Part shown: positions 520 through 24,030 of the stretch, piece after piece
Layout of the letters: each line of letters begins with the position of its first letter
Position numbering within the stretch: the stretch's first letter is position 1
Assembly: GCF_003945235.1 (NCBI RefSeq)
Contig: NZ_RSDW01000001.1
Span: forward strand, 5,400,001-5,432,000
Source: Edaphobacter aggregans
GTDB taxonomy: Bacteria; Acidobacteriota; Terriglobia; Terriglobales; Acidobacteriaceae
Direction of reading: 5' to 3'
DNA length: 32,000 nt
Program-made: the position numbers and the translations under genes
The notes under the pieces: generated by a model
The model's database searches: none
The model's input: the letters and a program-made list of their open reading frames with translations, nothing else
Told to the model about the DNA's origin: nothing

Positions 520-1554
520 ATGCCCGCCACCTCCACAATCCGGACCCAGATCGAAGTAGCGCTTGCCCATAAGATTCCGTCCGCACTGACTCCGGCACCA
601 AAGATGATCCGGCCGATGGCAGAAACTGGCATTAAATCCCTGGACAATCTCCTGCAAGGCGGCTTACCCATTGGGGCCGTAAGCGAGTTGGTCGGGCCAG
701 AGTGTTCAGGTCGGACAGACATCGCTCTTTCGTTTGTGGCGCACCTGACTCAGGCATCCAAGGTCTGCGCCTGGATCGACGCTTCGAATAACTTTGACCC
801 AGTGTCCGCCGCTGCGGCGGGAGTAGATCTTGCGCGGCTCTTATGGGTCCGCTGCGGTGCAGTGCGGGAGACAGTGAAACCACCGACACGCAACTTCGTT
901 TTACCAGACAAGTACCTCGTTCCACGTCCCGCAAAGCAAGGATTGCACGGTGGAGGATTTGGTTCGCATCCTCGTGGCGAGGCAAAGGGGTTGTCCGGTG
1001 CCGTGAGTGGTCTGCTCAATCCACAATCCTTCGCGCCGCGCTGTGCGGAGCCGCAACTCAGGCTGAGAGAAGAAAATCCGAGCTTTATCGCAAGCGATGA
1101 ACCAGCAGTCGTCGCTTCTCGACGTTATTCTCCTACCTCTAAACCATGGGCACGCATTGAACAGGCATTGGGAACTGCAGACCTGCTTTTACAGGGCGGC
1201 GGCTTTAGTGCAGTCGTGCTGGATATGGCGAGTCTCGCCCCGGAGTTTGTCTCACGCATCCAGCTCTCGACCTGGTTTCGCTATCGAGCGGCAGCGGAGC
1301 GAACGCAATCCAGCGTTCTTCTCCTCACGCAGTATGCGTGTGCAAAGAGTAGCGCCGAATTACTTCTTCACCTCCAGCCTGCAGAAGCTATCGGCGATGA
1401 AATCACTGTATTTACAGGGATACAAGCTCATATTGAGGTAACGCGGCGACGTTTCGCGCCGAACACAAGCAATGTTGTTCCATTGCGTAAGCCACCGCAG
1501 AACGTCAGCGGAGCTACATGGCAGTGTCGAACCGCATGGTCAGGTGCGCGATGA
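520..1554 (+). CDS. imuA: ImuA-like RecA-fold protein, first gene of the imuA-imuB-dnaE2 mutagenesis cassette
   Basis: A 344-aa ORF with a RecA/SulA-like segment SLDNLLQGGLPIGAVSELVGPECSGRTDIALSF (degenerate Walker A) and a later GGGFSAVVLD strand. Its stop overlaps the imuB start (ATGA at 1551-1554). The position directly 5' of imuB/dnaE2 is the canonical cassette order. Confidence 0.7.
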   Translation: MPATSTIRTQIEVALAHKIPSALTPAPKMIRPMAETGIKSLDNLLQGGLPIGAVSELVGPECSGRTDIALSFVAHLTQASKVCAWIDASNNFDPVSAAAAGVDLARLLWVRCGAVRETVKPPTRNFVLPDKYLVPRPAKQGLHGGGFGSHPRGEAKGLSGAVSGLLNPQSFAPRCAEPQLRLREENPSFIASDEPAVVASRRYSPTSKPWARIEQALGTADLLLQGGGFSAVVLDMASLAPEFVSRIQLSTWFRYRAAAERTQSSVLLLTQYACAKSSAELLLHLQPAEAIGDEITVFTGIQAHIEVTRRRFAPNTSNVVPLRKPPQNVSGATWQCRTAWSGAR

Positions 1555-3065
1555 CAAAGCCAACGGAACTCTATGCGTGTCTATATACGAAAGAATTTCC
1601 GGCGCAATCGCTATTACGGCTTCGCCCAGAGCTGCACAGTAAGCCTTGTGTGGTCATGGAGGGGGAAGCACCATCGCAATCTGTCTGCTCTCTGAATACA
1701 AAGGCGCGGCTCGCGGGCTTGGCTCGCGGCATGACCCGAGTGGAAGTCGAGACGTTCTCGGAGCCGGTAGTTCTGTCGCGTTCGGTTCAAGCGGAGACGG
1801 TCACAAGGTCGATACTCCTCGAATGCGCAGGTGCGTTTTCACCGAGGATAGAAGATCACAGGTCAGATACAGCTCTGCTCTGCGGTATCGACATCGCCGG
1901 CACAAAGAGTTTGTTCGGGCCCCCTGAACTGCTGGCGCAAAGCCTGCTCCAGCGCGTTAGGTCGCTCGGCATATCTGCGCGGGTCATTGTCAGCGACAAC
2001 TTTCATACAGCAGTCTGTATCGCAAAAGGTCCGATGGCACGCTCTGCTATTCAGATCATTCCTTCACAGAGTAAGACCGAAGCCTTATCCGGCCTGCCAT
2101 TGTCGGTTCTCGATCTCACGGATACGCAGGCAGAAACGTTCGCTCTATGGGGTATTCGAACGTTGGGTAATCTGGCATCTCTTCCCGAGAAAGAGCTGAT
2201 CGCTCGTATGGGACAGGATGGCAAACGTCTCCGGCAACTGGCACGCGGTGAACATCCTCATCTTTTCCAGCCTGCACAGGCGCCATTCACCCTCGACGAG
2301 CAGATGGAACTGGATGCGCCTGTCGATCTGCTCGATTCATTGCTCTTTATCGTGAACATGATGGTGGATCAGCTTATTCTGCGAGCGAAGGCGCGTATCC
2401 TCGCGCTGGCTTCCTTGACGATCACGCTTACGCTGGATGGTGCCGGATCGCATACCAGAACCGTCCGGCCTGCATTGCCGACAACAGACAAGCAACTCTG
2501 GATCAAGCTGCTTCACCTCGATCTGCAGGCGCATCCACCCTCTACTTCCATCCTTGCTGTTGCGCTGCACGCAGAGCCAGGGAGCACCAGCAAGATCCAG
2601 CTTGGGCTGTTCTCCCCACAACTCCCGGAGGCAAGCCGGCTGGACGTGACGCTTGCTCGCATCCGGGCCATTGTCGGCGAAAACAATGTAGGCTGCGCTG
2701 TACTTCAGGATTCTCATGCGTTGGAAAGTTTCCGCATGGAGCCATTCAGCGTGCTTTCCGGCGAATCCGCTACAGCCGCTTCTTCGCAGCCGCGAGCCTC
2801 AATGCGTATTCTTCGGCCATCTGAAGCCGCTTCCGTCACCTTACAGAACGGGCGACCGTCGATATTCTTCTTTCGCGAACGCCGCTATGCCGTTGAACAC
2901 GGCTATGGGCCGTGGGTCGTTGGCGGTGATTGGTGGGCGCAGACGCTCTGGGGCTGCGAGCAATGGGATCTGGTAGCACGATCGCAGGATGGTTCTCTGC
3001 TTTGCTGCTGCATGATGCGTGATCTTCTCGAAAACAAATGGCAGATGGCGGCGCTCTATGATTGA
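1551..3065 (+). CDS. imuB: ImuB, Y-family-polymerase-like inactive accessory subunit
   Basis: I prefer the ATG at 1551 (MTKPTELYACLYTKEFPAQSLL...) over the listed 1518 because it forms an ATGA overlap with the imuA stop and gives about 504 aa. The fold flavour is Y-family, but the N-terminal motif lacks the D-x-D/FFASVE acidic residues (compare dinB in this window: HIDMDAFYASVEQ). Its stop overlaps the dnaE2 start. Confidence 0.85.
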   Translation: MTKPTELYACLYTKEFPAQSLLRLRPELHSKPCVVMEGEAPSQSVCSLNTKARLAGLARGMTRVEVETFSEPVVLSRSVQAETVTRSILLECAGAFSPRIEDHRSDTALLCGIDIAGTKSLFGPPELLAQSLLQRVRSLGISARVIVSDNFHTAVCIAKGPMARSAIQIIPSQSKTEALSGLPLSVLDLTDTQAETFALWGIRTLGNLASLPEKELIARMGQDGKRLRQLARGEHPHLFQPAQAPFTLDEQMELDAPVDLLDSLLFIVNMMVDQLILRAKARILALASLTITLTLDGAGSHTRTVRPALPTTDKQLWIKLLHLDLQAHPPSTSILAVALHAEPGSTSKIQLGLFSPQLPEASRLDVTLARIRAIVGENNVGCAVLQDSHALESFRMEPFSVLSGESATAASSQPRASMRILRPSEAASVTLQNGRPSIFFFRERRYAVEHGYGPWVVGGDWWAQTLWGCEQWDLVARSQDGSLLCCCMMRDLLENKWQMAALYD

Positions 3066-6000
3066 TCGCTACGTGGAACTCCATGCTGCCAGCGCATTCA
3101 GCTTCCTGGAGGGTGCGTCCGAACCCGAAAAGCTTGTAGAGCGCGCCTTCGAGCTGGGAATGCCCGCGATGGCTCTGCTGGACCGTAATGGGGTGTACGG
3201 CTCCGCACGATTCCATACCAGTGCAAAGCGCAATGAAGTACGCGCGCATATCGGAGCTGAAGTTGCCGTCTCCTCACTCGGCTCGCGACTCACGCCTCCG
3301 GCGTGGTTGCCGTATCAACACATTACCGAGCCTGCCCGTCTTCCACTGCTCTGTGAAACTCGCGAGGGCTATCAGAATCTCTGCCGGCTCATCACGCGAT
3401 TCAAAATGCGGGAGACGAAAAAACAAGAAGGAGCGGCCATCTTTGATGATCTGGAGAGACATGCTTCTGGGCTGGTATGTCTGACAGGCGGGGACGAAGG
3501 CCCACTAGCAGCAGCTCTAATGCGCGGTGGTGAGCGAGCCGGAAGCGAGACGGTCGAGCGGCTTGTGCGCATCTTCGGACAAAACAACGTCTATGTCGAA
3601 TTGCAGCGTCACTGTGAACGCGAAGAAGAGTGGCGCAATCAAGCTGCTATTCGCATTGCCCGGTCACTTCAACTGCCGGTGCTGGCGACGAATGGCGTTC
3701 GCTATGCCATCCGGTATGACAAAGAGATTCTGGATGTCTTTACGGCTATTCGGTATCACACAGAACTCGATAGAGCCGGACGTCTTCTGTCTCTCAATAA
3801 CCGCCGTCATCTCCGGACGGCGAAAGAAATGAATGCTCTCTTTCGTGACGTGCCCAATGCCACGGAGAACACGGTAGAACTCTCGTCGCGTCTGAAGTTT
3901 GAGTTGGATGATCTTGGATACGAGTTTCCCAGCTATCCGGTGCCCGACGGCGAAACAATGGATAGCTTCCTGCGAAAGCGCGTTACTGAAGGCGTGCAGC
4001 GGCGGTATGGTCCCAAGAACAATCGAGACCTCTACAAACGCGCGGAGAAGCAGGTTGAGCGCGAGCTAGCATTGATCGAGAAGTTAGGTTTTGCGGGATA
4101 TTTCCTCATCGTGTGGGATGTTGTGCAGTTCTGCAAACGCAACGGCATTCTGATTCAGGGGCGGGGAAGTGCGGCTAATTCGGCGGTCTGCTATGCCCTC
4201 GAAATCACCATTGTTGATCCGGTTGGTATGGACTTGCTCTTCGAGAGGTTTCTGAGTGAGAGCAGGAATGAGTGGCCGGACATCGATCTCGATCTGCCTT
4301 CAGAGGATAAGCGTGAGCAGGCCATCCAGTATGTCTACAGACGCTACGGCGAACTCGGCGCTGCAATGACTGCGAACGTAATCACCTATCGCGCGAAGTC
4401 CGCGACGAGGGAAGTCGGAAAGGTCATGGGTCTTGATCCGGATTCTCTGGATAAGATGTCCGGGGGTGTAGGCAATTGGGAGTGGCGCGGACCAAACGAC
4501 ACAATGGCGCACTCCTACAAGAGTGCTGGATTCGATCTAAGTAACTCCCGGATTGCCAAGACCCTGGAAGTAGCCATGCGTATTCAGGGACTGCCTCGTC
4601 ACCTTGGACAACATAGCGGTGGCATGGTGATCTGTCAGGGCCAGCTCGATCAGGTTGTGCCGTTGGAACGAGCGTCCATGCCGGGTCGCACTGTCATCCA
4701 ATGGGACAAAGAGGACTGTGCAGACATGCACATCATCAAGGTCGATCTGCTTGGCCTGGGCATGATGGCTGTTCTCGCAGGTTGCCTCGATTTGGTTCCT
4801 GAATTCTATGGTGACAGAATCGATCTCGCGCAACTGCCGGAAGATGACGATGTCTATCGGACCATTCAACGTGCCGACACCATCGGCATGTTTCAAATCG
4901 AAAGCCGTGCGCAGATGGCTTCGTTGCCGAAGCATCGGCCCCGGAGCCGATATTGCATCACAAAGCAAGTCGCTCTGATCCGGCCAGGACCGATTCACGG
5001 GGATATGACCCATCCATATTTAGAACGGCGAATGGGAAGGCAGCCTGTAACGTACCCGCATCCTTCCCTCAAACCAGTTCTGGAACGCACCTTGGGTGTG
5101 CCGCTCTTCCAAGAGCAACTGCTCAAGATGGCGATGATTGCAGGCAATTTCAGTGGTGCCGATGCGGACGAGTTGCGCCGCGCGGTAGGGATGAAACGTT
5201 CCTGGGAACGAATGAAGAATCTCGAAGGTAAACTCCGAGCCGGGATGACGGAGAACGGTATTGATCCCAAATCGCAGGATCAGATTGTCAAGAACATTAG
5301 CTCCTTCGCCCTCTATGGCTTCCCGGAATCTCATGCCGCATCCTTTGGTGAGCTTGCCTACGATTCGGCTTACATCAAAGTGAAGTACCCGGAAGCCTTC
5401 CTCTGTGCGATCTTGAATAATCAGCCGATGGGATTCTACTCTGCCGCCACGCTTGTGAAGGACGCCCAACGCCACGGCGTTCATGTCAGATCCATCGACG
5501 TACAGACCTCGAACTGGCAATGCACTATTGAGCGAGGAGAGCACGAAAAGCTCTCCGTTCGTATCGGTCTCGGCTATGTGAAAAATCTGACCAAACGATC
5601 AGCCGAAGCGCTGGTAGCAGTTCGCGAAGCTGATGGTCCCTTCCGCTCTGCCGAGGATCTTACTCAGCGCGTTCCGTCTCTCACTCGACATGAACTGGCC
5701 CGACTAGCTGGGGTAGGAGCACTGAATAACCTCGAGGGAATCGAACATCGTCGCGATGCAATCTGGCAGGTAGAGCGAGCAGGCAAATTGGAGGGTCCGC
5801 TGTTTCGACAGAACAGTGATGTGCTGCGCGATGATGACGCGAGTTTGCCCCTCCAGCAGATGAGCACAGAAGAGAGATTAGTCGCCGATTACGCCGGTAC
5901 CAGTCTTACCATCGGCAAGCATCCGATGGCGTACCGCCGGGAAGCGCTTCGTAAGCAGAATGTACTTTCCTCCAACGATCTACAAAATCGTCGCCATGGA

Positions 6001-6276
6001 GATTTTGTACTCATAGCTGGTTGTGTCGCAGCCCGGCAACGTCCAGGAACTGCCAACGGAATTACCTTCATGTCGCTTGAGGATGAAGAGGGGCTCGCCA
6101 ACCTCATCATCATGGTCGATGTTTACGAAAGAAATCGATCAACAGTCATCCGCAGCAAGTTCGTTCTCGCGGGCGGCGTCCTACAGGTTCACGACGACGT
6201 CATCCATGTAAAAGCGGCATGGCTGAGGCCGCTTTCCGATCAGGCGCTGGAGGTGCAATCACATGACTTCCACTAA
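3058..6276 (+). CDS. dnaE2: Error-prone DNA polymerase III alpha-type subunit DnaE2 (ImuC)
   Basis: PHP N-terminus YVELHAASAFSFLEGAS, then GFAGYFLIVWDVV, RGSAANSAVCYALEIT, WPDIDLDLPS, HSGGMVI, FQIESRAQM, LIRPGP, FPESHAASF and a C-terminal OB-like region. I chose the ATG at 3058 (MIDRYVELH) because it overlaps the imuB stop as ATGATTGA; this gives 1072 aa. Confidence 0.95.
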   Translation: MIDRYVELHAASAFSFLEGASEPEKLVERAFELGMPAMALLDRNGVYGSARFHTSAKRNEVRAHIGAEVAVSSLGSRLTPPAWLPYQHITEPARLPLLCETREGYQNLCRLITRFKMRETKKQEGAAIFDDLERHASGLVCLTGGDEGPLAAALMRGGERAGSETVERLVRIFGQNNVYVELQRHCEREEEWRNQAAIRIARSLQLPVLATNGVRYAIRYDKEILDVFTAIRYHTELDRAGRLLSLNNRRHLRTAKEMNALFRDVPNATENTVELSSRLKFELDDLGYEFPSYPVPDGETMDSFLRKRVTEGVQRRYGPKNNRDLYKRAEKQVERELALIEKLGFAGYFLIVWDVVQFCKRNGILIQGRGSAANSAVCYALEITIVDPVGMDLLFERFLSESRNEWPDIDLDLPSEDKREQAIQYVYRRYGELGAAMTANVITYRAKSATREVGKVMGLDPDSLDKMSGGVGNWEWRGPNDTMAHSYKSAGFDLSNSRIAKTLEVAMRIQGLPRHLGQHSGGMVICQGQLDQVVPLERASMPGRTVIQWDKEDCADMHIIKVDLLGLGMMAVLAGCLDLVPEFYGDRIDLAQLPEDDDVYRTIQRADTIGMFQIESRAQMASLPKHRPRSRYCITKQVALIRPGPIHGDMTHPYLERRMGRQPVTYPHPSLKPVLERTLGVPLFQEQLLKMAMIAGNFSGADADELRRAVGMKRSWERMKNLEGKLRAGMTENGIDPKSQDQIVKNISSFALYGFPESHAASFGELAYDSAYIKVKYPEAFLCAILNNQPMGFYSAATLVKDAQRHGVHVRSIDVQTSNWQCTIERGEHEKLSVRIGLGYVKNLTKRSAEALVAVREADGPFRSAEDLTQRVPSLTRHELARLAGVGALNNLEGIEHRRDAIWQVERAGKLEGPLFRQNSDVLRDDDASLPLQQMSTEERLVADYAGTSLTIGKHPMAYRREALRKQNVLSSNDLQNRRHGDFVLIAGCVAARQRPGTANGITFMSLEDEEGLANLIIMVDVYERNRSTVIRSKFVLAGGVLQVHDDVIHVKAAWLRPLSDQALEVQSHDFH

Positions 6277-6556
6277 TCCTGCCGGACACGTCGGCGGGTA
6301 TCGGCGTGAAGTGGACTTTCAGAAATTAGGTCCAGCTTTGATAATCGCGTCTAGTCTGGTGCTCGCCATCCGAACGGCCCGCTGGCCTCCGACGCACAGC
6401 GACGGACTTGCAAATATGGAATGGGAAAAGGAAGTTGAGCACAGCGTTCGCATCGCGAAGATTGTTCTTTCGCATGTAATCGCACGTTGTCCAGAGATGT
6501 TTCAGATGAAGGACGTGCCCTGGTATGTCGCGACGGACGACGAAATACCAAAGTAG
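6263..6556 (+). CDS. Hypothetical small membrane protein (97 aa), translationally coupled to the dnaE2 3' end
   Basis: The ATG at 6263 is preceded by GGAGG (6250-6254) and overlaps the dnaE2 stop (6274-6276) by 14 nt. It has one hydrophobic helix (GPALIIASSLVLAI). I recognise no family. Confidence 0.4.
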   Translation: MTSTNPAGHVGGYRREVDFQKLGPALIIASSLVLAIRTARWPPTHSDGLANMEWEKEVEHSVRIAKIVLSHVIARCPEMFQMKDVPWYVATDDEIPK

Positions 6557-6701
6557 CATTGACTGCAACTTTTATGATGGCAACGGTTAACCTGACCTTG
6601 ATTAATGAGCTCTTGATGCTGACGATGGATAAGGCCGCACTGGGGTCTTCGCATATACTTCTTTCACGAGTCAGACGACAGAACAGTGAGCCAAATCAAA
6701 C

Positions 6702-9700
6702 GTGATCTCCCGCTATGTACTTTGGAACACCGTTACCCCTTCTACCCCACCGGAACCTGTATCTGTTGCGCTAAAGCAGGCTTTCCAACTTCCAATTGAC
6801 AATCTTGAATCAATCGTTCCGACCTCACTGGCTACGGCAACTCGAATTGCGATTCGAGAATTCCTCGTAACAACCGATGCAGGCCGCGAGTTGGCCGTTT
6901 ATAAGGGAACGCAGCCCCTTTGGCTGGCCCCGTGCGGACAGACATCGATCTCCGATATGGACCTGTCCGTGCGTTCCTTCAATTGTCTGGTTGGCGCGTC
7001 AGTCGCGACTTTGGACGATCTGCTTGCATGGACTCCGAACAAACTCTTGAGCTTGGAACACTTCGGAAGAAAATGTCTCAATGAGATTACCGGGCTTCTA
7101 AGCGACCTTGGATATATTGCAGCTGACGAAGATAGCCCATTCTTCAAAGGTCATCGAACGGGCAACCCATCCGATGACGGCTGCCCGTTCGCCTGCCTGT
7201 TGGCGATTCGGGAGGTGCTTCCCGAAGGGCCACTGCGGACAAAGCTCGAGATGTGCGATTGGACCACGATTGGAGATATCGCGCTTCACCCAATCTCCGA
7301 TGCGTCAATATTCGCAGACCTTACTCAGGAAGAGCAGAATACACTCCAGAACATCTTTCAAAACCTTTCTCTAACCTTGCCTGTTCGGGAATCTGAATGG
7401 GTAACGACTCATGTTTCCGAACTGCGCCGTGTTTTCTCGTCTGAGCTGAGCGCACTTGGGCAGGCTCTCAATGTTGACGACAAACAGCCTACAAGCGACT
7501 CGATCGTTTTCGTTGGAAGCGCCAGCTCGTTGACTGAAGAACTTGATCGACTCATTCCGCCCAAGTACAAGCCGCAAAAACGGTCTATCATCGCTGCGCT
7601 CTTCGGGCTTGATGGCGCTGATCCTCTTACGCTCGAAGAGGTTGCTAAGCGACAGGATCCGCCGATGACGCGGGAGCGAGTCCGCCAGATCGGATCCCCA
7701 TTTCTCAATCGCATCACTTCAGAGGGCAGAAATCTAATCTGGCTTCATAAAGCCCTTGAGACACTGACAGAGGAGATTCCTTGTACACAAGTTCATGCAG
7801 AGATACTTCTCATCGAACGGGGAATCCTCACCTCTCGCCTGTCTCTGACTTCTATTCTCAAACTCTTAAATCGGGCAGGGGTCGAGCATCAGCTAATTCT
7901 GGAATTCGGGCTTCTGCTTTCGAAACAGACCTTGTCTGTCATGAAAGCTGCTGTCTCCAGTGCTCGCAAGAGTTCTTCCCACTGGGGCGTGGCCGACTGG
8001 GAAGAAGTACGGGCTCCGTTGGGCCAATATGGGCATATCATCCGCCCCATTCTTCCCTGGGTTACTTGGCTAGGAGATTCCGAGAGATACTTTGTCTTTC
8101 CAGATGGAGAGAACAGTCTCGCAAACCGGCTGGCTCGGATGTTGCATGTGGCACCCCGGCTTCCGCTTTCGATTGCGTATGAGGCGATCTTTCGGGACAA
8201 TCGGGTGGATTGCTCTCGCCTCCCTAGGGAACATTTCGCTTCGTTCTGCGGACTCTGGCCTTGGTGCAAGCTCGACGGCGACGAGATCGTCTCTATTGGC
8301 ACGCTTCCTCCTGTCGAAGCCTCTGGCGACGATCTTCTGGTCATTCTGATCCGCGAATTCGGCAGACCCGCCACGAGACAGGAGATTTTGCAACGAGCAC
8401 GCATTGAAGGCATTGGCGACGTGACCGTCAACCAGGCCTTGAGTTACAGTAATGTCCTGATGGGGGCTAGTGGTCGGTATTGGGTGGTTGGAGACCCACC
8501 CTTCGTGGAAGAATCCCGCGATTCACAGGCAAAGACCTCCGAGCCTTCTCCTTTAGTGGAGATTACTTCGGGCGATCTTGCTGCTGAGATCATCTCCCAA
8601 GACGGCTCGACAGGACATTCACCCAGTGGAATCTCTAAGCTTGACCCTGCATCCGAGCAGTTCGTAGAGCGCTTGACCCTGGAAGTGCAGCGGCGGGTCG
8701 TCAAGAGACAGCTTGCAACGCCATGGTCAGTAGCAGAACTCGCCCTGGAGGATGCGGAACGATCAGTATTGTTTGAATGGGGTAGCCTCGCGCAATGGGA
8801 TTACCGCAGGGACAATGTTCGATTCAATGACATCGCGAATGAAAGGATTCGCCGGCGCGCCGCGCTCGGGCTTGCGTTCATGGTATTCGCTGCGGAAGCC
8901 GTCCGAAAGCTCGGCGGATCGGGGGTTGTATGGCCCGCGATAAATAAGGCTCTCGGACCGCAGCAACGTCAATTGTTCCTCGCGCAGGAGAGTTCCCCGA
9001 AAACAATGTTGCGAGAAGGAGTGGAGGAGGCTTGCAGGGTCTTCGGGATCAGACACGATTTTGGCGAAGCCGGGCATCAGGTTTGGGTGCGGACGATTGG
9101 CGTTCAGTATGCCATTCCGCTCTCTCAGCTTCCATCCTTACCTCAAATGTTGACCGAATCGTTTGAATTTAATCCGATATCGGTCCAATCACTTCTCAGT
9201 CCGTCGGACAAAATGTACTCGCCTTCGTTCACCGAGGCGTGGAACACTATGAGGCGTCTGCGGCACGGCGACCTTAGCGCGGGCACTGCGGAACAACGGC
9301 TCAAGAAAAATTGCTGGACGATGCATTTCCCTATCGCGGAGCTCCTTGATTGGTGTCTTGCCTCCGCGCCGGCTCGTGCAACCACGAATCAAGGTCTCAC
9401 CCGAGAATCGGAAGGTCTGGCTTATTCCTATTTTGATCAGCCCTCGCTACGATGGGTTGGGGACAACCCGTTTCTTGAATATGCCTTGCACCAGCGGCCG
9501 CCCGCGTGGGTCGAATTAGGCCCGTTGATGTTCATTTCCACTGAACCAGTTAAAAAGGAACAGGTGCTTATCGGCGAGGATGGCTGGCGATTTGCATACG
9601 CTCCATTGTCGATTTCGTTGAGCCACCATCCGTCGACCTATTTCTCCTTCGATCTTCGGTATCGAGGCTCCTCCCAGCTCGCGGAACCAATCGTGCAATC

Positions 9701-11504
9701 GCTGGTACCACCAACCGGGCTCGCCTTCTTCGATGCTTCAGGAGCATTTATCGGCGACAGTGAAACCGCTGTTCCTCTTGACGAATCTGTCACACTACTT
9801 CACGCAGCAGATGTGCAATTCGAAGGAGTTTCGAACCCTCTGCCGTTCCGTTCGATATTTGCCGGATCGTATCGTCTCACTCGATTTCGAGCTGGGGTCT
9901 TGGCTGGGATCACTGTGTTCAATCATTCTGGGGAGCTACTCTGGACCCATGCGGAGGAGGACAGCGAGGCCACGGAAGTTGTCCAAAGTGCCGATCTCGA
10001 CGGGGCGCGATGGGGACATCCTGCGCGCCTTCGGCTACCAACAACAGACTTCGAGCCACATCGGGTTCGGCTCATGAATGGTGAAACCGTTGTATTGCCT
10101 CCGCCAGGAGAAACGACAGTGGTGGAGTTGACGCCCAGCTTGAGTCGAGCGAAATATGCCCGTTTACAGGGATACGCGGGCGTCCACGCGCGATCGGTCA
10201 AGATCCAGTTTCGCCACCTATCGCAGCAGTATGGTGCGGCTTTGGAAGCAAACGGAGCCTGGCAGGCACTACAGGAAAACTCCTCGGTTGAAACGTCCAG
10301 ATTGAGGACGAACCGGTTGCTGGCCCAATCGAAGGACTGGGACTTCGATCCGGAGGAAGCACGGTGGATGGAGGGGAGTCGCGTCATCGCACGACCGCGC
10401 ACCTACGGAACCATCCTGACCGAATGCGAGGGCCTCGGCGCGGGGCTTTGTCTGGCCGGTAAGACCTACAACGAATACCAATCCGGGCTGCGGGCCGCGT
10501 CGGCTGTGATCGACGTAGGCGAATTGAGAAATGTGACTCGACATGATGACAAGAGCTGGAGTGCGCTGCTTCCCTTCGAAGATCCTTTATCCGCAGAGCA
10601 TTGTTTGTGGGCGTGGACTTCAAATTCAAGGCTTCCGCAACCCATCCCAGTTACAGGCCTGGTCAAAAATGGGTCAGAGCTGAAGTGGCGGTTGAGCGTC
10701 ACCGCAGAAGTATTTGGGTGGGCTCTTTCCTTTCGCGGCGCCAGAGTTGGCTCAATGTGTGTGGAGGCGGGATTGTTCCGGTTCGCGGAGCACCTCTCCC
10801 GCGGCGATTGGAGTTCCGACTGGAAGTCCACTTCAGCGTGGATTCGCTGGTGGCATTGCCCTGTATTTCATCCCTCATGGAATGCTGAGATCAAGAAGCT
10901 TTGCATGTTGGCACCCGTGGATACCTGCGCTGCCTGGCTACTGCCCGCGTGTCCGAATTCCTCGATGGTTAACGATGAAGGGCGCGAAGAAGCGTGGGCA
11001 TCTGCCTGCCGCGAGCTGCTTTGGTCATGGCGACCAACCAGCTACGAAGCCAGAGATCTGATGGAGGGCCTGGATATCTGGTCCGGTGACATTGCCAGGG
11101 ATTCGACAGGCGTAAAACTGGAACCGATAGGGAGACTCGCTCGCTGCAATCCCATTCTACTTTCAAGAGCTGCTAGTCTTGCGGCCCCGGAGTTGTACAA
11201 CTACCCGCGTAATCAATTGGTGATTCTTATCCGACTTCTACTCGATGCTATTAACCCGAACGCAGTACGGACCGGATTCGATCTGCGGACACTTTGCGAG
11301 CGTTACGCGCAAGGCGAGAACCGGTTGGACGGCGAATTTATTCTGAGAAGCCTGGTAGTAGACGCCAGGGCAATCCTTGCGGGGCAGGACAGAAAATCGC
11401 ATAACCTCTTGATCGCGTTCCACAACGCAGGATTGCGAGAGATAGTGGCGATTGCACTACTGCTCGATACCATCACGACCTGGCAAGTCGGGGGGAGCGA
11501 CTGA
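6702..11504 (+). CDS. Giant (about 1600 aa) uncharacterised protein with N-terminal RpoA alpha-CTD-like HhH module(s) and a sigma-70 region-4-like HTH. It is the partner of the downstream helicase (DruH-like position).
   Basis: A single uninterrupted 4.8-kb frame. The listed start is GTG at 6702, so the exact start is uncertain. LSVRSFNCLVGASVATLDDLLAWTPNKLLSLEHFGRKCLNEITGLL matches the alpha-CTD pattern (LSVRS.NCL....I.T..DL......LL...NFG.KSL.EI). FGLDGADPLTLEEVAKRQDPPMTRERVRQIGSPFLNRI matches sigma-70 region 4.2. The remaining 1250 aa or so contain no motif I recognise. Confidence 0.85.
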   Translation: MISRYVLWNTVTPSTPPEPVSVALKQAFQLPIDNLESIVPTSLATATRIAIREFLVTTDAGRELAVYKGTQPLWLAPCGQTSISDMDLSVRSFNCLVGASVATLDDLLAWTPNKLLSLEHFGRKCLNEITGLLSDLGYIAADEDSPFFKGHRTGNPSDDGCPFACLLAIREVLPEGPLRTKLEMCDWTTIGDIALHPISDASIFADLTQEEQNTLQNIFQNLSLTLPVRESEWVTTHVSELRRVFSSELSALGQALNVDDKQPTSDSIVFVGSASSLTEELDRLIPPKYKPQKRSIIAALFGLDGADPLTLEEVAKRQDPPMTRERVRQIGSPFLNRITSEGRNLIWLHKALETLTEEIPCTQVHAEILLIERGILTSRLSLTSILKLLNRAGVEHQLILEFGLLLSKQTLSVMKAAVSSARKSSSHWGVADWEEVRAPLGQYGHIIRPILPWVTWLGDSERYFVFPDGENSLANRLARMLHVAPRLPLSIAYEAIFRDNRVDCSRLPREHFASFCGLWPWCKLDGDEIVSIGTLPPVEASGDDLLVILIREFGRPATRQEILQRARIEGIGDVTVNQALSYSNVLMGASGRYWVVGDPPFVEESRDSQAKTSEPSPLVEITSGDLAAEIISQDGSTGHSPSGISKLDPASEQFVERLTLEVQRRVVKRQLATPWSVAELALEDAERSVLFEWGSLAQWDYRRDNVRFNDIANERIRRRAALGLAFMVFAAEAVRKLGGSGVVWPAINKALGPQQRQLFLAQESSPKTMLREGVEEACRVFGIRHDFGEAGHQVWVRTIGVQYAIPLSQLPSLPQMLTESFEFNPISVQSLLSPSDKMYSPSFTEAWNTMRRLRHGDLSAGTAEQRLKKNCWTMHFPIAELLDWCLASAPARATTNQGLTRESEGLAYSYFDQPSLRWVGDNPFLEYALHQRPPAWVELGPLMFISTEPVKKEQVLIGEDGWRFAYAPLSISLSHHPSTYFSFDLRYRGSSQLAEPIVQSLVPPTGLAFFDASGAFIGDSETAVPLDESVTLLHAADVQFEGVSNPLPFRSIFAGSYRLTRFRAGVLAGITVFNHSGELLWTHAEEDSEATEVVQSADLDGARWGHPARLRLPTTDFEPHRVRLMNGETVVLPPPGETTVVELTPSLSRAKYARLQGYAGVHARSVKIQFRHLSQQYGAALEANGAWQALQENSSVETSRLRTNRLLAQSKDWDFDPEEARWMEGSRVIARPRTYGTILTECEGLGAGLCLAGKTYNEYQSGLRAASAVIDVGELRNVTRHDDKSWSALLPFEDPLSAEHCLWAWTSNSRLPQPIPVTGLVKNGSELKWRLSVTAEVFGWALSFRGARVGSMCVEAGLFRFAEHLSRGDWSSDWKSTSAWIRWWHCPVFHPSWNAEIKKLCMLAPVDTCAAWLLPACPNSSMVNDEGREEAWASACRELLWSWRPTSYEARDLMEGLDIWSGDIARDSTGVKLEPIGRLARCNPILLSRAASLAAPELYNYPRNQLVILIRLLLDAINPNAVRTGFDLRTLCERYAQGENRLDGEFILRSLVVDARAILAGQDRKSHNLLIAFHNAGLREIVAIALLLDTITTWQVGGSD

Positions 11505-11505
11505 A

Positions 11506-14500
11506 ATGGAGATCCAAGACACGCTGCATCTCGATGCGGTAACAGCGCAGCATCAACTTCGGGACCGCCTCGTAGGGTTGGCGCGAAGCGAGTCTTTCGT
11601 CCGGTCCCCCGCAGTTTCTGCTGCGTGCGAACGGCTCTGGCTCGCCAATGGCGATGCCGCAGGGCTGCTGAGTGAGATATGGGTTGAATCTCTATTCCCT
11701 GCAAAATCTTCGGGTATCTCGCTGAAGACCACAGCAAACGTCGCGCCGTCGCTGCTTCGCCAGCTCGAGCGTTCGGCGGCTCTCCCTCTGGATCGCAAAC
11801 TCTATGACCATCAGGCCCGGACGATTCAACTCGAATACTCGAGCCGTGGCACAGATGAACGCCCTGCAATGATTGTCTCGGCTGGAACCGGCGCCGGCAA
11901 GACCGAAGCGTTTCTATTGCCGATGCTGAACGATCTCTTTTCAACGCCCCGGAAGGCAGGTGAGACCGGCGTCCGAGCGATCCTGCTCTACCCCTTGAAT
12001 GCGTTAGTTAACGATCAGATTGAGCGGCTCCACGGATGGCTCAAGGGGCAAGGCGAGATTACGGTCATTCACTATACGAGCGAGACCCCGCAGGATGAAC
12101 CAGATCCCAAGGCGGTATTCGATCCCAGCCGGCTGCGAACACGACTTGAGGCGCAAAGAAATCCTCCGGATATCTTGATCACAAACTACTCGATGCTTGA
12201 GTACCTCCTCTGTAGGCCTCAAGACAATCCACTCTTCGGAAAGGGTCTGCGGACGCTTGTCCTCGACGAGGCACACCTTTATAGCGGAAGTCTCGCAGCT
12301 GAAATTTCTCTTCTGTTGCGACGTGTCATGTTACGTTGCGGCGTCCCAAGCGAGCGAGTACTCCAAATTGCAACCTCCGCAACGCTTGGAGGCAGCTCTA
12401 GCGAGATCAAAGACTTTGCCGCCGGCATCTTTTCGAAGTCTCTCTCTCTGGTCCACCATATACCCGGCAAGACCTCCCGTCGGGAGCTGCCGAAGCAAGC
12501 GAGTCCCTCAGCTCAGTGCAGGCCGGAGGATATGCTGAAGCTCACCGAGGCGATTAAGTTGCGCCCCCTGGTAGATGCGAAGGGGCTGCGCACCGATCCG
12601 GAGCTATGCGATGAACTCCGCGCGCTCTCTCCACTATTCGTTGATTCTCGGGCGCATTTCGATTCGGACGAGAGAAGGCCTGCGAGCCTCCTGCACGCAC
12701 TGATCGGCCAAATGCCTCAGCTTCACACCTTAGACAACCTGTTCTGGAATCACCACGAAACTGGATCCGTCATGAAATTGCGCGAAGTCGCCCAAGAGAT
12801 TTGGCAGGCAAACTCTCAGCTCGCGATGCGAGCCACTGTGGCGCTACTCCAGTTGGGATCTCAGGCTCGATTGAATCTCCAGGAATTACCTCTGTTACCT
12901 CACAAGCTACACCTTCTCGCCCGCGCACCCGGGCCGATCAGCGTTTGCGTGAATCCCGACTGCAACGCGGCGCCTGAGGATCGAATCCCCGGTGGAGGTG
13001 CCGTCTCGCTAGACTCGGGGGGGGCCTGCAAGCATTGCGGGTCTGCAACCTTATCCTTGGCACGGTGTAATAGATGTGGCTTGGAGGCGGTCGCTGGAAG
13101 CCGGAGATCCGACAATACGCTACACCCTCGAGGCCAAACATTTGGCCGAGCTAGAAGAAATGCAAGCGAGATGTTTTTTCAGCTCGCTCCCGATGGAGAC
13201 GTCTTTTACAACATCGCGACACGTGATTGTGAGGAGGGCGGCCAGACGGTTCGCATGGCCGAAATTGTGCTTTGCCCGCATTGCGGGGCGGAGGATGATC
13301 CATTTCGTTCCCTAAGCTTGCTGGATGCCCTCGTTCTCCCTGTGGTAGCAGAGACTTTACACGCTTCCCTCCCAGTCATATCGGATCACGAACGCGCCTG
13401 GCTTCCGGCCGGCGGCAGGCGATTGCTTGCATTTAGCGACAGCCGTAACAGGGCGGCGCGGCTAGGCCCACTTTTAACGCGAAGCCATGAAATCCAGATG
13501 GGGCGCTCGTTGATCGATCAGGTGCTAGGCACAGCAACGCCGGACGCAGGTGTTCGGAGGCTTCGTCAGCGGAATATTCAACGAACATTGGAGGATCTCG
13601 CAAGCTCCGATCTAAGCGCCTCGTTGAGGGCAGAACTCGAATCCGATCTGAGGTCCCAACGAACTGAACTCGAAGCAATCGATTTGGGCATAACCATTGA
13701 AGAGTTGGGCAACCGTCTCAAGCACGCACCCGGACTGGCTCAGTTCTACTGCCGTCCTAGCGCAGTCACGCAACGGGCGGCCGAATGGACTCAAACTACA
13801 TGGGAGCGCAATAGAACGGAGATGATGGCGTGGGCGCCGACGATCCTCTCGAGAGAACTCGCCGTACCGGCATGGCAACGGTTGTCGCTTGAGTCGGCAG
13901 GTCTGGTTGAGATCGTATATCCGGGAATAAGCGATTGGAGGCCGCCGGTCGGCCTGGGCTTTACGCCCGCGATAGCAGACGGTCTCAAAGAACAATGGCC
14001 CGTCCTCATTGCAGCCTTACTGGACATCGCGAGAAGGGACCGTGCCGTGACTCTCGGCTCACGCGATCGAGATCATGTTGAATACTCGACGCCTCTTGGG
14101 AAGTGGATGAGCTTACGAACACGTTCCGACACATCTTTGATCTCCTTTGCAGGATCGGCGCAAGGCAGTCGATCGCGGAGGCCTGCGCTCGTCGTGAAGC
14201 TGCTAGAGCGCTTAGGTTGCGTCTCTCGAATTGACGAGCTTACCTCCCAGGTGTTGGAGGCTGTCTTTCAGCAGTTGATCGATGCTGGCCAACAAGGCCA
14301 GTTGCCTTGGATTGAAGTTGGTGATCGGCAAAGCAGGGACGGGATCTCACGAGCCTTCAGACTGAAATTTGATGGACTTCGTGTTCGGCGCCCGTTCAAT
14401 CTCTATCGCTGTGAAGTCACGGGAGAACTTTGGCCCAGGTCTCTCTTGGGGCTCTCGACGACATCTACTGATGGGCGATCTGACCTGAAACCGGTCACTC

Positions 14501-16620
14501 ACGCCGAAGCCGACCAAGATCCACGTTTTGCACGGACGCGTCAGGAAATCCGCTCATCTGAGATATTCCGGATCGGCATTTGGGCTGACGAGCATTCGGC
14601 ACAGCTTGATCCCAAGGAGAATCGCAGACTTCAGGATCTCTTCTCTAAAGGGGCGCGCAATATCCTCTCGGCTACGACAACGCTTGAAGTTGGTATTGAT
14701 ATTGGCGGGCTCTCTGCCGTTCTGCTGGGCAATGTGCCTCCTTCTCGGGCTAACTATCAACAACGCGGTGGTAGAGCTGGCCGACGTGCAGATGGGTCGT
14801 CACTAGTCTGCACATTCGCACCAAACCGCCCCTTCGACCAGGCAGTATTCAATCACTTCAGCCATTTCTTCAGCAAACAGTTGCGTAAGCCCACAGTTCG
14901 CCTTGGGCGTGAGCGCTTCGGGCGTAAGCATGCCCACTCGTTTCTCCTGGGAGAATTCTTTCGGCGCATATATCCAGCAGGAACGACCGTTACCACAATG
15001 AACGCCTTTAATCAGATGGGTTGGCTCTGCGGAGAACAACAAGTTCCAAGGCAGGTCGCCGACCAACCACGAGTCGAGCAACTCATGTCCCCAAACGCAC
15101 TCATTCTGGATGAATCGGCTTCCTGGTGGGTTAGCGGTGATGCCCCGTTTCTACAGTTCGATCACTTCCTCGGTTTTCTTCTTACCGGAGAGAATTCGGT
15201 CAAAGTTCAGCTCGAAGCCTTGCTGCAGGACACGCCGCTCAGCGATACCGTCAACCGCGTGATCTCAGACGCTCAGTCTTCGTTCCGATCCGCGTGTGTG
15301 GCCTGGTCGAAGGACTATCGGTCGTTGGTGAGTGCGTGGCAGTCGGGAATTGCGTCAGGTGTTCCGAATTCAACGCTGAACGCGATCCATTATCAAGCGA
15401 AGACCCTCTGGCAAACGACGACGATCTCGTCGCTAGCTGAGAGGCGGTTCCTCCCACGGTATGGATTTCCTCTGGACGTTCAAGTTTTGACCGCCTTGAC
15501 GGAAGGTCGCGAGGAACCCGTCCGTTTTCAGCGCGGTTCGCTTCTCGCGCTGAGCGAGTACGTCCCCGGGTCAGTCCTGCTCGGAGGAGGGCGCAGTTAC
15601 ACATCAAGAGGCATTCTGAACTTTTGGTCCGCGAGCGGGGACAAGAGTTTTGGCCTCAGGAAATTTCAGTATGCGTGTCAGTCCGGACATCGATGGACTG
15701 AGCTCCAGCCCCTACAAGGGGACCGGTGCCCAACTTGCAATGACTTTCTTCAGAGTTCTGGACGAGAACTGCTGATTCCCACATTCGGCTATTCCACGGC
15801 TCAATGGGACCCGCCGACCTGGGAAGGAGCGCAGGAGCGAATAGGTGAAACGCAAGTACTGGCGTCCGGTTTTCTGACAGCTGGAGCTTCGCCGATCATC
15901 ACGGATTTTGCAGGAATTGTCGGCATGTCTGCCGCCCCACACGAAAACGCGGAGTTGCTTGCAACCAACTCAGGTGAATTTGACGCCGGCTTTGCCATCT
16001 GCACTAAGTGTGGCTTTACCGACAGTATGAGATCAGGGGCGGACGACCTTCCCCGGAGCGGGGAGGGCGTCGATTTCAACGAACACCTACCGCTGCGCTC
16101 AAGACTTAACAGCAAGAAGTGCTGGAATAAAGGAGAAGAACCTGTACTTCGACATCAACATTTAGCAGCACAACACAACACGGACCTGTTGGAGCTTGAT
16201 CTCGAAGATGTACCCGGCCTCCGTACAAGGGTTATGGCAATGACCTTCGCTCACGCTGTTCACTTAGCTGCGGCAGAATTGCTCGAGGTGGACTCGCGCG
16301 AAATCAGTCTCTCAGTCCATGAGATCGATGACCAAACGTCGTGGAAGATCCAGCTCTACGACTCCGAGGCTGGTGGCTCGGGGCACATCCTTGAACTGGC
16401 TGAGAGGCATCATGAATTGCCTGCAGTGCTTAAGCTCGTACTTTTTCGAAATGCTCAACACAATGCAATATGTACTAGTGCGTGCATCCAATGTCTGCTA
16501 ACGCAAGGGAGTCAAGATGCATACGAGGCCGGGCTTCTTGATCGGCGCGCTCTTCTCGATCTGTTGATAACGACTGAATCCACAGATTGCGTAACCGAAT
16601 CGAGTTCCACTGCGTTTTAA
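11506..16620 (+). CDS. Giant DEAH-box SF2 helicase with Zn-ribbon insertions and a C-terminal DUF1998/MZB domain (DruE/DrmAB/MrfA-like)
   Basis: The ATG at 11506 is 1 nt after the upstream stop (TGA 11502-11504) and is preceded by a GGGGGGAG Shine-Dalgarno sequence; the listed 11452 is a TTG. Helicase motifs: Q-like LYDHQ, motif I SAGTGAGKTEA (from 11881), motif II LVLDEAH (DEAH 12265-12276), motif III ATSATL, motif IV-like LLAFSDSRNRAARL, EHSAQL, motif V ILSATTTLEVGIDIGGL, motif VI QQRGGRAGRR. Cys clusters: CVNPDCN..CKHCG..CNRCG and CPHCG. The C-terminus carries RFLPRYGFPLDV...ALSEYVPGS, CPTCN, CTKCG, LYDSEAGGSGH and CTSACIQCL, typical of DUF1998. Confidence 0.9.
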   Translation: MEIQDTLHLDAVTAQHQLRDRLVGLARSESFVRSPAVSAACERLWLANGDAAGLLSEIWVESLFPAKSSGISLKTTANVAPSLLRQLERSAALPLDRKLYDHQARTIQLEYSSRGTDERPAMIVSAGTGAGKTEAFLLPMLNDLFSTPRKAGETGVRAILLYPLNALVNDQIERLHGWLKGQGEITVIHYTSETPQDEPDPKAVFDPSRLRTRLEAQRNPPDILITNYSMLEYLLCRPQDNPLFGKGLRTLVLDEAHLYSGSLAAEISLLLRRVMLRCGVPSERVLQIATSATLGGSSSEIKDFAAGIFSKSLSLVHHIPGKTSRRELPKQASPSAQCRPEDMLKLTEAIKLRPLVDAKGLRTDPELCDELRALSPLFVDSRAHFDSDERRPASLLHALIGQMPQLHTLDNLFWNHHETGSVMKLREVAQEIWQANSQLAMRATVALLQLGSQARLNLQELPLLPHKLHLLARAPGPISVCVNPDCNAAPEDRIPGGGAVSLDSGGACKHCGSATLSLARCNRCGLEAVAGSRRSDNTLHPRGQTFGRARRNASEMFFQLAPDGDVFYNIATRDCEEGGQTVRMAEIVLCPHCGAEDDPFRSLSLLDALVLPVVAETLHASLPVISDHERAWLPAGGRRLLAFSDSRNRAARLGPLLTRSHEIQMGRSLIDQVLGTATPDAGVRRLRQRNIQRTLEDLASSDLSASLRAELESDLRSQRTELEAIDLGITIEELGNRLKHAPGLAQFYCRPSAVTQRAAEWTQTTWERNRTEMMAWAPTILSRELAVPAWQRLSLESAGLVEIVYPGISDWRPPVGLGFTPAIADGLKEQWPVLIAALLDIARRDRAVTLGSRDRDHVEYSTPLGKWMSLRTRSDTSLISFAGSAQGSRSRRPALVVKLLERLGCVSRIDELTSQVLEAVFQQLIDAGQQGQLPWIEVGDRQSRDGISRAFRLKFDGLRVRRPFNLYRCEVTGELWPRSLLGLSTTSTDGRSDLKPVTHAEADQDPRFARTRQEIRSSEIFRIGIWADEHSAQLDPKENRRLQDLFSKGARNILSATTTLEVGIDIGGLSAVLLGNVPPSRANYQQRGGRAGRRADGSSLVCTFAPNRPFDQAVFNHFSHFFSKQLRKPTVRLGRERFGRKHAHSFLLGEFFRRIYPAGTTVTTMNAFNQMGWLCGEQQVPRQVADQPRVEQLMSPNALILDESASWWVSGDAPFLQFDHFLGFLLTGENSVKVQLEALLQDTPLSDTVNRVISDAQSSFRSACVAWSKDYRSLVSAWQSGIASGVPNSTLNAIHYQAKTLWQTTTISSLAERRFLPRYGFPLDVQVLTALTEGREEPVRFQRGSLLALSEYVPGSVLLGGGRSYTSRGILNFWSASGDKSFGLRKFQYACQSGHRWTELQPLQGDRCPTCNDFLQSSGRELLIPTFGYSTAQWDPPTWEGAQERIGETQVLASGFLTAGASPIITDFAGIVGMSAAPHENAELLATNSGEFDAGFAICTKCGFTDSMRSGADDLPRSGEGVDFNEHLPLRSRLNSKKCWNKGEEPVLRHQHLAAQHNTDLLELDLEDVPGLRTRVMAMTFAHAVHLAAAELLEVDSREISLSVHEIDDQTSWKIQLYDSEAGGSGHILELAERHHELPAVLKLVLFRNAQHNAICTSACIQCLLTQGSQDAYEAGLLDRRALLDLLITTESTDCVTESSSTAF

Positions 16621-16648
16621 GCACGGGTCCGCACGAACGCGCATGCCG

Positions 16649-16664
16649 CCAGAATCGATTCTGG
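16649..16664. promoter_or_regulatory. Perfect 16-bp palindrome CCAGAATCGATTCTGG between the giant helicase gene and the RecD-like gene
   Basis: Read directly at 16649-16664, 29 nt after the helicase stop. No T-tract follows, so it is not a canonical intrinsic terminator. It could be a protein-binding site or a short hairpin. Confidence 0.25.
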
Positions 16665-16769
16665 ATTGGAGCTAAATCGCTGATGCACTCATCTGGGAGG
16701 CAACACCGACCGACTTCACATTTGTGATCATGTTGATCTGTAAGGTTGTCGTTTACAGTAATCCCAGCG

Positions 16770-18275: not shown

Positions 18276-18307
18276 CACCTCTCCAATACTTCCACCCACC
18301 TGCTTTC

Positions 18308-23873: not shown

Positions 23874-24030
23874 GCGCTTGATTGTAAGCGAAGAGGCGGC
23901 GAAAACTGCAACAGGATCGGACACATAAAATGCACTGGGTAGCAAAAACTTGATCACCCATGTGCGTGCGCCCGTCTCCCGTGCAAGGTGGCCTCGTTTG
24001 CCAAGAGCTGTACCCTGCCTTGGAAAGGTG

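Follow-up and report, generated by a model that had tools for sequence, protein, structure and literature searches.

An RNA polymerase alpha-CTD and sigma-70 region 4 cassette heads the DruE partner of a Druantia type III-like pair in Edaphobacter aggregans

Druantia occurs widely, and how it works is only beginning to be understood. In type III, replication of phage DNA is countered by DruE together with the DNA-binding protein DruH (10.64898/2026.05.12.722862; PMC13316683). Escherichia coli DruH is built from an N-terminal globular domain, six immunoglobulin (Ig)-like subdomains, and a C-terminal domain (10.64898/2026.05.12.722862), and DruH-type partners are proposed to sense infection by responding to phage proteins (PMC13192584; PMC13316683). 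Type III-B DruE has no PLD nuclease (Bell et al., 10.1101/2025.09.15.676423; PMC13316683), and in the MSMEG_1253/1254 system of Mycobacterium smegmatis DruE is 1667 amino acids (aa) long (PMC13316683). Here we analyze a gene pair in a 32,000-nucleotide (nt) stretch of Edaphobacter aggregans (Acidobacteriota), contig NZ_RSDW01000001.1, positions 5,400,001 to 5,432,000, which is called the window throughout. The first gene encodes a giant protein with RNA polymerase-like modules at its N terminus, referred to as the partner, and the second encodes a DruE-type helicase.

The pair shares the layout of Druantia III, with two co-directional, coupled genes that encode a nonenzymatic protein of >1000 aa followed by a DruE of ~1700 aa. 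As in type III-B and the M. smegmatis system, the DruE in the window is nuclease-less, and an AlphaFold2 model gives the partner an Ig-like array and a C-terminal domain like those of E. coli DruH. Unlike DruH, the partner is 500 aa longer, carries a head composed of an alpha subunit C-terminal domain (alpha-CTD), a sigma-70 region 4 (sigma-4), and winged-helix units, and has no detectable sequence homology to DruH. The pair is a Druantia type III-like system with a non-DruH partner. A preliminary description of the window had presented a giant protein with an unknown 1250-aa body, paired with a giant helicase; the pairing holds, but the pair is no orphan, and its helicase is DruE (PADLOC DruE3, E = 1.8e-202). 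The two genes and the parts of the partner are as follows:

6702-11504, + strand: giant partner gene, 1600 aa from a GTG start
6702-6914, + strand: N-terminal leader, residues 1-71, a small alpha/beta region (AlphaFold2)
6915-7121, + strand: alpha-CTD (helix-hairpin-helix), residues 72-140 (Pfam, PDB profile, Foldseek, BLASTP)
7173-7397, + strand: degenerate alpha-CTD-like unit, residues 158-232 (hhalign, position in the cassette, AlphaFold2 helices with a predicted local distance difference test score [pLDDT] of 79-91)
7518-7736, + strand: sigma-70 region 4-like helix-turn-helix (HTH), 4.1 and 4.2, residues 273-345 (NCBIfam, phmmer, profile, Foldseek)
7737-8501, + strand: helical segment, then two or three winged-helix-like units, residues 346-600 (AlphaFold2, Foldseek)
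8652-9422, + strand: alpha-helical body domain, residues ~651-907 (AlphaFold2; homologous to a DruE partner from Roseomonas)
9444-10760, + strand: beta-sandwich (Ig-like) array, residues ~915-1353 (AlphaFold2, Foldseek)
10764-11501, + strand: C-terminal alpha-helical domain with invariant tryptophans and a WIRWWH motif, residues 1355-1600 (AlphaFold2, invariant columns)
11506-16620, + strand: DruE-type helicase gene of the YprA/MrfA family, 1704-1722 aa (DEAD, Helicase_C, MZB/DUF1998)

Residues 72-140 of the partner are an RpoA alpha-CTD. Pfam RNA_pol_A_CTD (PF03118) matched residues 80-134 (E = 1.6e-15; 57-60 bits against a cut-off of 23.8), and a profile of 29 homologs found RpoA among PDB sequences at E = 4.7e-20. 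BLASTP against the E. coli alpha-CTD gave 35% identity (E = 3e-12) and an unambiguous residue mapping, in which R91, N94, C95, G122, K124, and E128 of the partner correspond to alpha R265, N268, C269, G296, K298, and E302. In an AlphaFold2 model of the head (residues 1-400, 16-sequence alignment, mean pLDDT 81.8, predicted template modeling [pTM] score 0.52), RpoA alpha-CTDs made up nearly all of the best Foldseek matches in the PDB, with target template modeling (TM) scores of 0.68-0.92; the tightest superpositions had a root mean square deviation of 0.6-0.8 Å over 54-58 residues. The preliminary description had read an alpha-CTD at residues ~86-138, and the peptides that it quoted match the translation of 6957-7715 exactly; the domain that it named is confirmed both by Pfam and by this superposition on solved alpha-CTDs.

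This domain belongs to the same fold and sequence family as the alpha-CTD of RpoA and retains all of its UP-element DNA-binding residues. Unlike in RpoA, it stands without the alpha N-terminal domain, within a protein of 1600 aa, and some homologs carry two copies. Approximately one-third of the homologs have an extra intact alpha-CTD inserted upstream, for which Pfam reported two stretches (132-134 bits). Pfam found no alpha N-terminal domain (PF01000/PF01193) in the partner, and NCBIfam rpoA models aligned by their C-terminal ends alone, far under cut-off. A true RpoA paralog was therefore rejected, as the alpha N-terminal domain is missing. The name "RNA polymerase alpha subunit," under which the protein is found in GenBank and UniRef, stems from the PF03118 match alone; it is a misannotation, and we correct it here.

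Residues 273-345 are a sigma-70 region 4. When residues 267-353 were compared with PDB sequences by phmmer, all 57 of the 57 matches were to sigma-factor region 4 and spanned 4.1 and 4.2 (best match, SigA, 1.4e-4), and the family profile found RpoS, SigA, and RpoD in the PDB at 2.7e-8 to 2e-6. NCBIfam full-length sigma models aligned to residues 276-345 (MzaA, 3e-8; RpoS, 3e-6; RpoD_Cterm, 1.7e-5), and Foldseek matched the head model to sigma-A region 4 chimeras at a TM score of ~0.5. The recognition helix TRERVRQI aligns to sigma-70 residues 583-590. In the partner itself, Pfam Sigma70_r4 (PF04545) reached only 13.9-16.3 bits over residues 291-330, under the cut-off of 24.1; two orthologs exceed that cut-off (P0034, 31.3 bits; P0036, 24.6 bits). 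The sigma-70 region 4.2 signature noted previously is upheld by specific matches to PDB and NCBIfam entries, with the Pfam score of this particular protein below the cut-off. Like group 1 and group 2 sigma factors, the partner covers both regions 4.1 and 4.2, and its TRERVRQI helix is the one found in primary sigma factors, residue for residue; unlike them, it is without regions 1.2, 2, and 3, and its activator-contact positions are changed. Sigma70_r2 and Sigma70_r3 were not found by Pfam, and the NCBIfam sigma models aligned by their C-terminal ends only. Identity as a sigma factor was rejected because regions 2 and 3 are missing. Both the alpha-CTD and the sigma-4 matches are far beyond chance, and a chance motif match was rejected.

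Between these two modules, residues 158-232 are probably a decayed second alpha-CTD, as the preliminary description had suspected, although the support is weaker than for the intact copy. Profiles of residues 72-140 and 158-232 aligned in register by hhalign (probability 79.6%, E = 1.5e-5), and the unit occupies the slot that is filled by an intact second alpha-CTD in relatives, ~140-150 residues before TRERVRQI. By the hhalign mapping, DNA-contact positions have been replaced (R265 by P177, N268 by T180, G296 by E208, and K298 by N210), which suggests that the second unit is a relic.

We next consider the residues of each intact module that would meet DNA. The E. coli numbering was checked, positions were mapped by BLASTP and phmmer alignments, and counts refer to a family set of 29 proteins. 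Alpha R265, N268, C269, G296, K298, S299, and E302 (the "265 determinant") contact UP-element DNA in E. coli. The equivalents of R265, N268, C269, G296, K298, and E302 are invariant (29/29), and C, S, or T stands at the S299 position. In sigma-70 of E. coli, R584, E585, R586, R588, and Q589 read the -35 hexamer; the equivalents of R584 and Q589 (R324 and Q329 in the partner) are present in 29/29, and those of E585, R586, and R588 (E325, R326, and R328) in 27-28/29. The same residues are kept in 37 other proteins in which one match spans the alpha-CTD to sigma-4, a set that includes a few fragments of the giant family itself: R265 and G296 equivalents in 37/37, and all five sigma residues in 37/37. 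Sigma activator-contact positions have changed, with K593 replaced by P, R596 by D, and K597 by A in the majority of the family, and by P, N, and R, respectively, in this partner. In the complex of alpha-CTD, sigma-4, and DNA, alpha D259/E261 and sigma R603 touch. Acidic equivalents of D259 and E261 (D85 and D87 in the partner) are each kept in 23/29 family members and the R603 equivalent (R343) in 17/29; in the wider cassette set, these positions are not retained (R603, 3/37). With mean pairwise identities of 0.50 and 0.56, the alpha-CTD and sigma-4 rank among the segments of the partner that are best conserved, and the leader, residues 1-71, is its least conserved folded part (0.22).

The preliminary description knew of no earlier account of such a fusion; a wider search showed that the fusion is not unique. 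In an exhaustive HMMER search with a 400-residue N-terminal profile, 230 clusters (at 50% identity) matched at E <= 1e-30. Of the best 146 matches, 70 have both a strict alpha-CTD motif and a [TS]RER[IV]RQ[IVL]-type motif, nearly always with the alpha-CTD first. We scanned eight of these cassette relatives; several are 700-1700 aa long with two or three alpha-CTDs and Sigma70_r4, which was above the Pfam cut-off in 5/6 scanned cassette relatives (27-40 bits). An SNF2 helicase and a ResIII helicase carry four C-terminal alpha-CTDs each, and arrays among the relatives reach up to 11 matched alpha-CTD-like stretches. The ordered cassette of alpha-CTD followed by sigma-4 appears to be a mobile module found in many unrelated architectures. 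When the head was used as a single sequence, a word-index search returned seven matches, two of them short proteins of alpha-CTD and sigma-4.

Two of these architectures belong to described systems. PglW of BREX type 2 has an alpha-CTD-like helical domain followed by HTH/winged-helix modules (PMC12839542). Positions ~796-964 of the PADLOC PglW model aligned locally to the stretch from alpha-CTD to sigma-4 of partner homologs and cassette relatives. Unlike PglW, in which the cassette sits in the C-terminal half, the partner is without the NERD nuclease, kinase, and iSTAND domain; Pfam found no NERD or kinase domain in it, no BREX genes were found in the window, and the PglW match was limited to homologs. 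MzaA of the MZA system, which NCBIfam names a sigma-70 family protein (NF041931; partner at 32.9 bits, E = 3e-8, against a cut-off of 800 bits), shares the sigma-4-like HTH, and the C terminus of the PADLOC MzaA model aligned to the cassette (E = 0.0025 for the partner). Unlike the shared HTH, the rest of MzaA and its partners differ, and the match is only local. The Druantia III studies searched and a survey of the YprA family make no mention of RNA polymerase-like domains in a DruE partner, and in the literature searched we found no description of this cassette on a DruE partner or of the cassette, alpha-CTD to sigma-4, as a unit.

One cassette relative stands in what is likely another defense context. 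At locus L016 (8001-10184), a 727-aa protein (P0077) joins a cassette of two alpha-CTDs and sigma-4 to an uncharacterized C-terminal half, and its gene has as neighbors those for a HATPase_c_3 protein of 552 aa, a toxin-antitoxin system, and an IS110 transposase.

The remainder of the partner belongs to a separate lineage of DruE partners. Residues ~589-1600 are homologous to a 1325-aa hypothetical protein encoded on Roseomonas plasmids (hhalign probability 99.2%, E = 2e-19, 921 columns), immediately upstream of a DruE-like helicase that is 39% identical to the helicase in the window. The Roseomonas partner has no alpha-CTD/sigma-4 head and begins instead with a different N terminus of ~330 aa. 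Because the body is shared with this headless protein, it represents a distinct DruE-partner family to which the head was added in the acidobacterial lineage. The Roseomonas partner also goes unrecognized by the PADLOC DruH models, and tblastn of this protein against plasmids found Roseomonas only. The two genes lie at 4019-13268 of locus L018 (Roseomonas mucosa plasmid AP031465.1), where the helicase is 1731 aa; they are flanked by insertion sequences and occur on four Roseomonas plasmids.

Homologs of the partner (n = 36; 29-95% identity) are nearly all full length, and the GTG start at 6702 is supported by the conservation of an N-terminal ISRYVLW motif among them. The body (residues 401-1600) was modeled with AlphaFold2 at a mean pLDDT of 75 and a pTM score of 0.37. 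Winged-helix-like units span residues ~408-595 of the partner, and Foldseek matched this segment to tandem arrays, UFL1/DDRGK1 (probability 1.00) and SelB WH2-4 (probability 0.95), both at low TM scores. The Ig-like array matched strings of Ig-like domains in the PDB and viral tail proteins, which are generic matches at low TM scores. A Foldseek search of the body against the PDB (to April 2026, with no DruH structure included) and viral models returned only such generic Ig-like and winged-helix arrays. A word-index search with the body profile returned the same family only, and tblastn of the giant protein against plasmids gave RpoA alpha-CTD matches only.

The pairing of the two genes is consistent across loci. 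The helicase has DEAD (5e-21), Helicase_C (4e-12), and MZB (1e-6) domains by Pfam, which found no nuclease domain; MZB ends at residue 1682 of 1722, and the C-terminal PLD nuclease is absent, unlike in type III-A. Its ATG lies one base past the partner stop, and a GGAG (Shine-Dalgarno) sequence falls inside the last codons of the partner. In all 14 of the 14 loci with sufficient downstream sequence, a DruE-like helicase gene comes directly after the partner gene, usually in overlapping or abutting frames, and the same order is found in a distant branch (P0049, L017). The family is rare, patchy, and almost confined to Acidobacteriota (8 loci among 185,579 species genomes). Flanking genes vary by locus and include CBASS, HsdR, KAP NTPase, CHAT, toxin-antitoxin, integrase, and type IV secretion genes, with SPARSA in the window; such contexts are typical of defense islands and mobile elements. 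Two further arrangements were seen at individual loci. In L017 (11239-13376), a gene of 217 aa and one for a UvrD-like helicase come after the DruE-like gene, and in L012 a second DEAD/Helicase_C/MZB helicase gene, of 1726 aa, lies at 1-1059 on the - strand, ~9 kb upstream of the pair and on the opposite strand.

Taken from sequence, the head (residues ~1-350) most likely binds DNA, because its DNA-contact residues are nearly totally conserved both in the family and in other cassette hosts, and because DNA motors also carry the cassette. The preliminary description had offered sensing of the transcription apparatus, mimicry of it, and DNA targeting of the helicase as possible functions, and among these DNA targeting fits the data best; the data speak neither for nor against sensing or mimicry. 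Alpha-CTDs of this type bind the minor groove of A/T-rich DNA. We propose, with confidence that is evenly poised, a Druantia III-like module in which the head of the partner anchors on double-stranded DNA and the coupled DruE acts on the DNA so bound. The alpha-CTD would read the A/T-rich minor groove and the sigma-4 HTH the major groove, with the winged-helix units adding DNA contacts. The head would in this way hold the partner on double-stranded DNA, with a preference for stretches that are A/T-rich or resemble promoters, for example in the DNA of an invading phage. Contact with the translationally coupled DruE helicase would be made by the Ig-like and helical body, and the helicase may then unwind the bound DNA and interfere with its replication.

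Several observations weigh against this proposal. E. coli DruH binds single-stranded DNA and not double-stranded DNA. None of the eleven PADLOC DruH3 models matched the partner, and the body was unmatched even at E <= 10, whether the 1200 aa were scanned whole or as three 400-aa pieces, while the control, E. coli DruH, scored up to 2539 bits. Comparison of the partner family with E. coli DruH by hhalign gave a probability of 0.26%. By sequence, then, the partner is not DruH, the comparison covering PADLOC DruH3 and E. coli DruH, with actinobacterial III-B DruH outside it. We infer an anti-phage role for the pair from its homology and surroundings. How the head domains are placed relative to one another is not reliably modeled (pTM 0.52), and conserved DNA-contact residues would also be expected of decoys that resemble parts of RNA polymerase. 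Finally, SOS or damage-tolerance genes adjoin the pair in 5 of ~13 loci, among members that are 30-40% identical, which could mean a role in DNA repair; this neighborhood could mark a hot spot for insertion, or the genes could be functionally linked.

The modules may instead contact RNA polymerase itself, with sigma-4 docking on the beta-flap tip and the alpha-CTD on upstream DNA, so that the partner and helicase would be tethered to transcription complexes. There they might act on transcription that is hijacked or of phage origin, or resolve DNA damage linked to transcription. The match extends over all of region 4, with 4.1 and the helix that follows the HTH, which speaks for such docking, as do the D259/E261 and R603 equivalents kept in most close family members and the Imu, DinB, and SRAP genes near the pair in several loci. 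We nevertheless consider it unlikely, since the sigma regions 2 and 3 that a sigma factor would have are missing and the R603 equivalent is found in only 3/37 of the wider cassette set. The same neighboring genes underlie the idea of a repair module, in which partner and helicase would form an SOS-linked complex that works with the ImuA-ImuB-DnaE2 mutasome, DinB, and SRAP, by analogy to the MrfA/YprA repair helicases. The genes imuA-imuB-dnaE2 lie directly upstream of the pair both in the window and in L001, and on its downstream side in L002; five loci (the window, L001, L002, L003, and L006) have SRAP, dinB, DNA ligase, or Ku genes near the pair; and by GC profile the pair is not compositionally distinct, its GC content being not atypical. 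This role is distinctly unlikely in our judgment: the helicase scores as a defense-branch DruE, at least 8 loci have no repair neighbors and sit amid defense and mobile-element genes, and the distribution is as rare and patchy as noted above. Moreover, a search for the LexA-type box GTTCN7GTTC (the type of Alphaproteobacteria and Acidobacteria) found two sites, a count no higher than chance, and neither is near the operon.

Among phage takeover factors are ADP-ribosyltransferases, which modify alpha R265, and anti-sigma proteins of the AsiA type, which bind region 4. An integrated decoy would exploit this, with the alpha-CTD and sigma-4 mimicking the RNA polymerase surfaces that such factors attack, the two that phages hijack most often, and with their binding or modification switching on DruE. 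The modules do keep real RNA polymerase surfaces, including the R265 equivalent and the whole of 4.1 and 4.2, they are placed on a flexible N-terminal head in the AlphaFold2 model, and DruH-type partners are among the proposed infection sensors (PMC13192584; PMC13316683). On the other hand, alpha-CTD arrays of up to 11 and the SNF2 and ResIII fusions fit DNA binding better than bait, and it is specifically the DNA-contacting residues that are conserved while sigma activator-contact positions vary, so that we hold a decoy to be quite improbable. If true, bacteria would possess an equivalent of the integrated decoys in the NLR immune receptors of plants, and the principle would extend to the many other proteins that carry the cassette. 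Least probable of all, and to our minds hardly credible, is that the head serves only as a transcriptional autoregulator of the operon, with no effector role. Many defense proteins do carry self-repressing HTH domains, but this cassette is large and multi-domain, its order is conserved across many architectures, and the intergenic region 6276-6701 contains one weak promoter-like match (9/12 positions) and no obvious operator repeats.

Anchoring of the head on DNA would bear on how the non-helicase partner of a Druantia system chooses its target, as this branch of partners carries a readable address label. The DNA-contact residues are known residue by residue, so that point mutants could be used to test binding, its preference, and the link to RNA polymerase. 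The cassette of alpha-CTD followed by sigma-4 is also common to PglW-like, MzaA-like, and helicase-fused proteins and to hundreds of uncharacterized clusters.

An E. aggregans entry in GenBank matches the giant protein at 100% identity. Elsewhere in the window, the following genes surround the pair:

520-1554, + strand: imuA-like gene
1518-3065, + strand: imuB
3019-6276, + strand: dnaE2
6417-6557, + strand: small open reading frame of ~46 codons, within the 426 nt that separate dnaE2 from the giant gene
16746-18275, + strand: RecD2/PIF1-like superfamily 1 (SF1) helicase, after a 126-nt gap from DruE
18308-19834, - strand: short prokaryotic Argonaute (pAgo; PADLOC pAgo_I, 2e-146)
19797-22574, - strand: SIR2-APAZ, 925 aa (PADLOC Aga_SIR2-PNTD, E = 0)
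22761-23957, - strand: dinB
24291-24920, - strand: SRAP/YedK-like gene

A scan of 6200-18500 for promoters and terminators gave fewer sites than shuffled sequence and was uninformative. The RecD2/PIF1-like helicase that follows DruE may be an optional third component, as most other loci are without it. Downstream on the - strand, the short pAgo and SIR2-APAZ genes form a SPARSA-type defense pair with a GC content of 0.51, slightly below that of its flanks.

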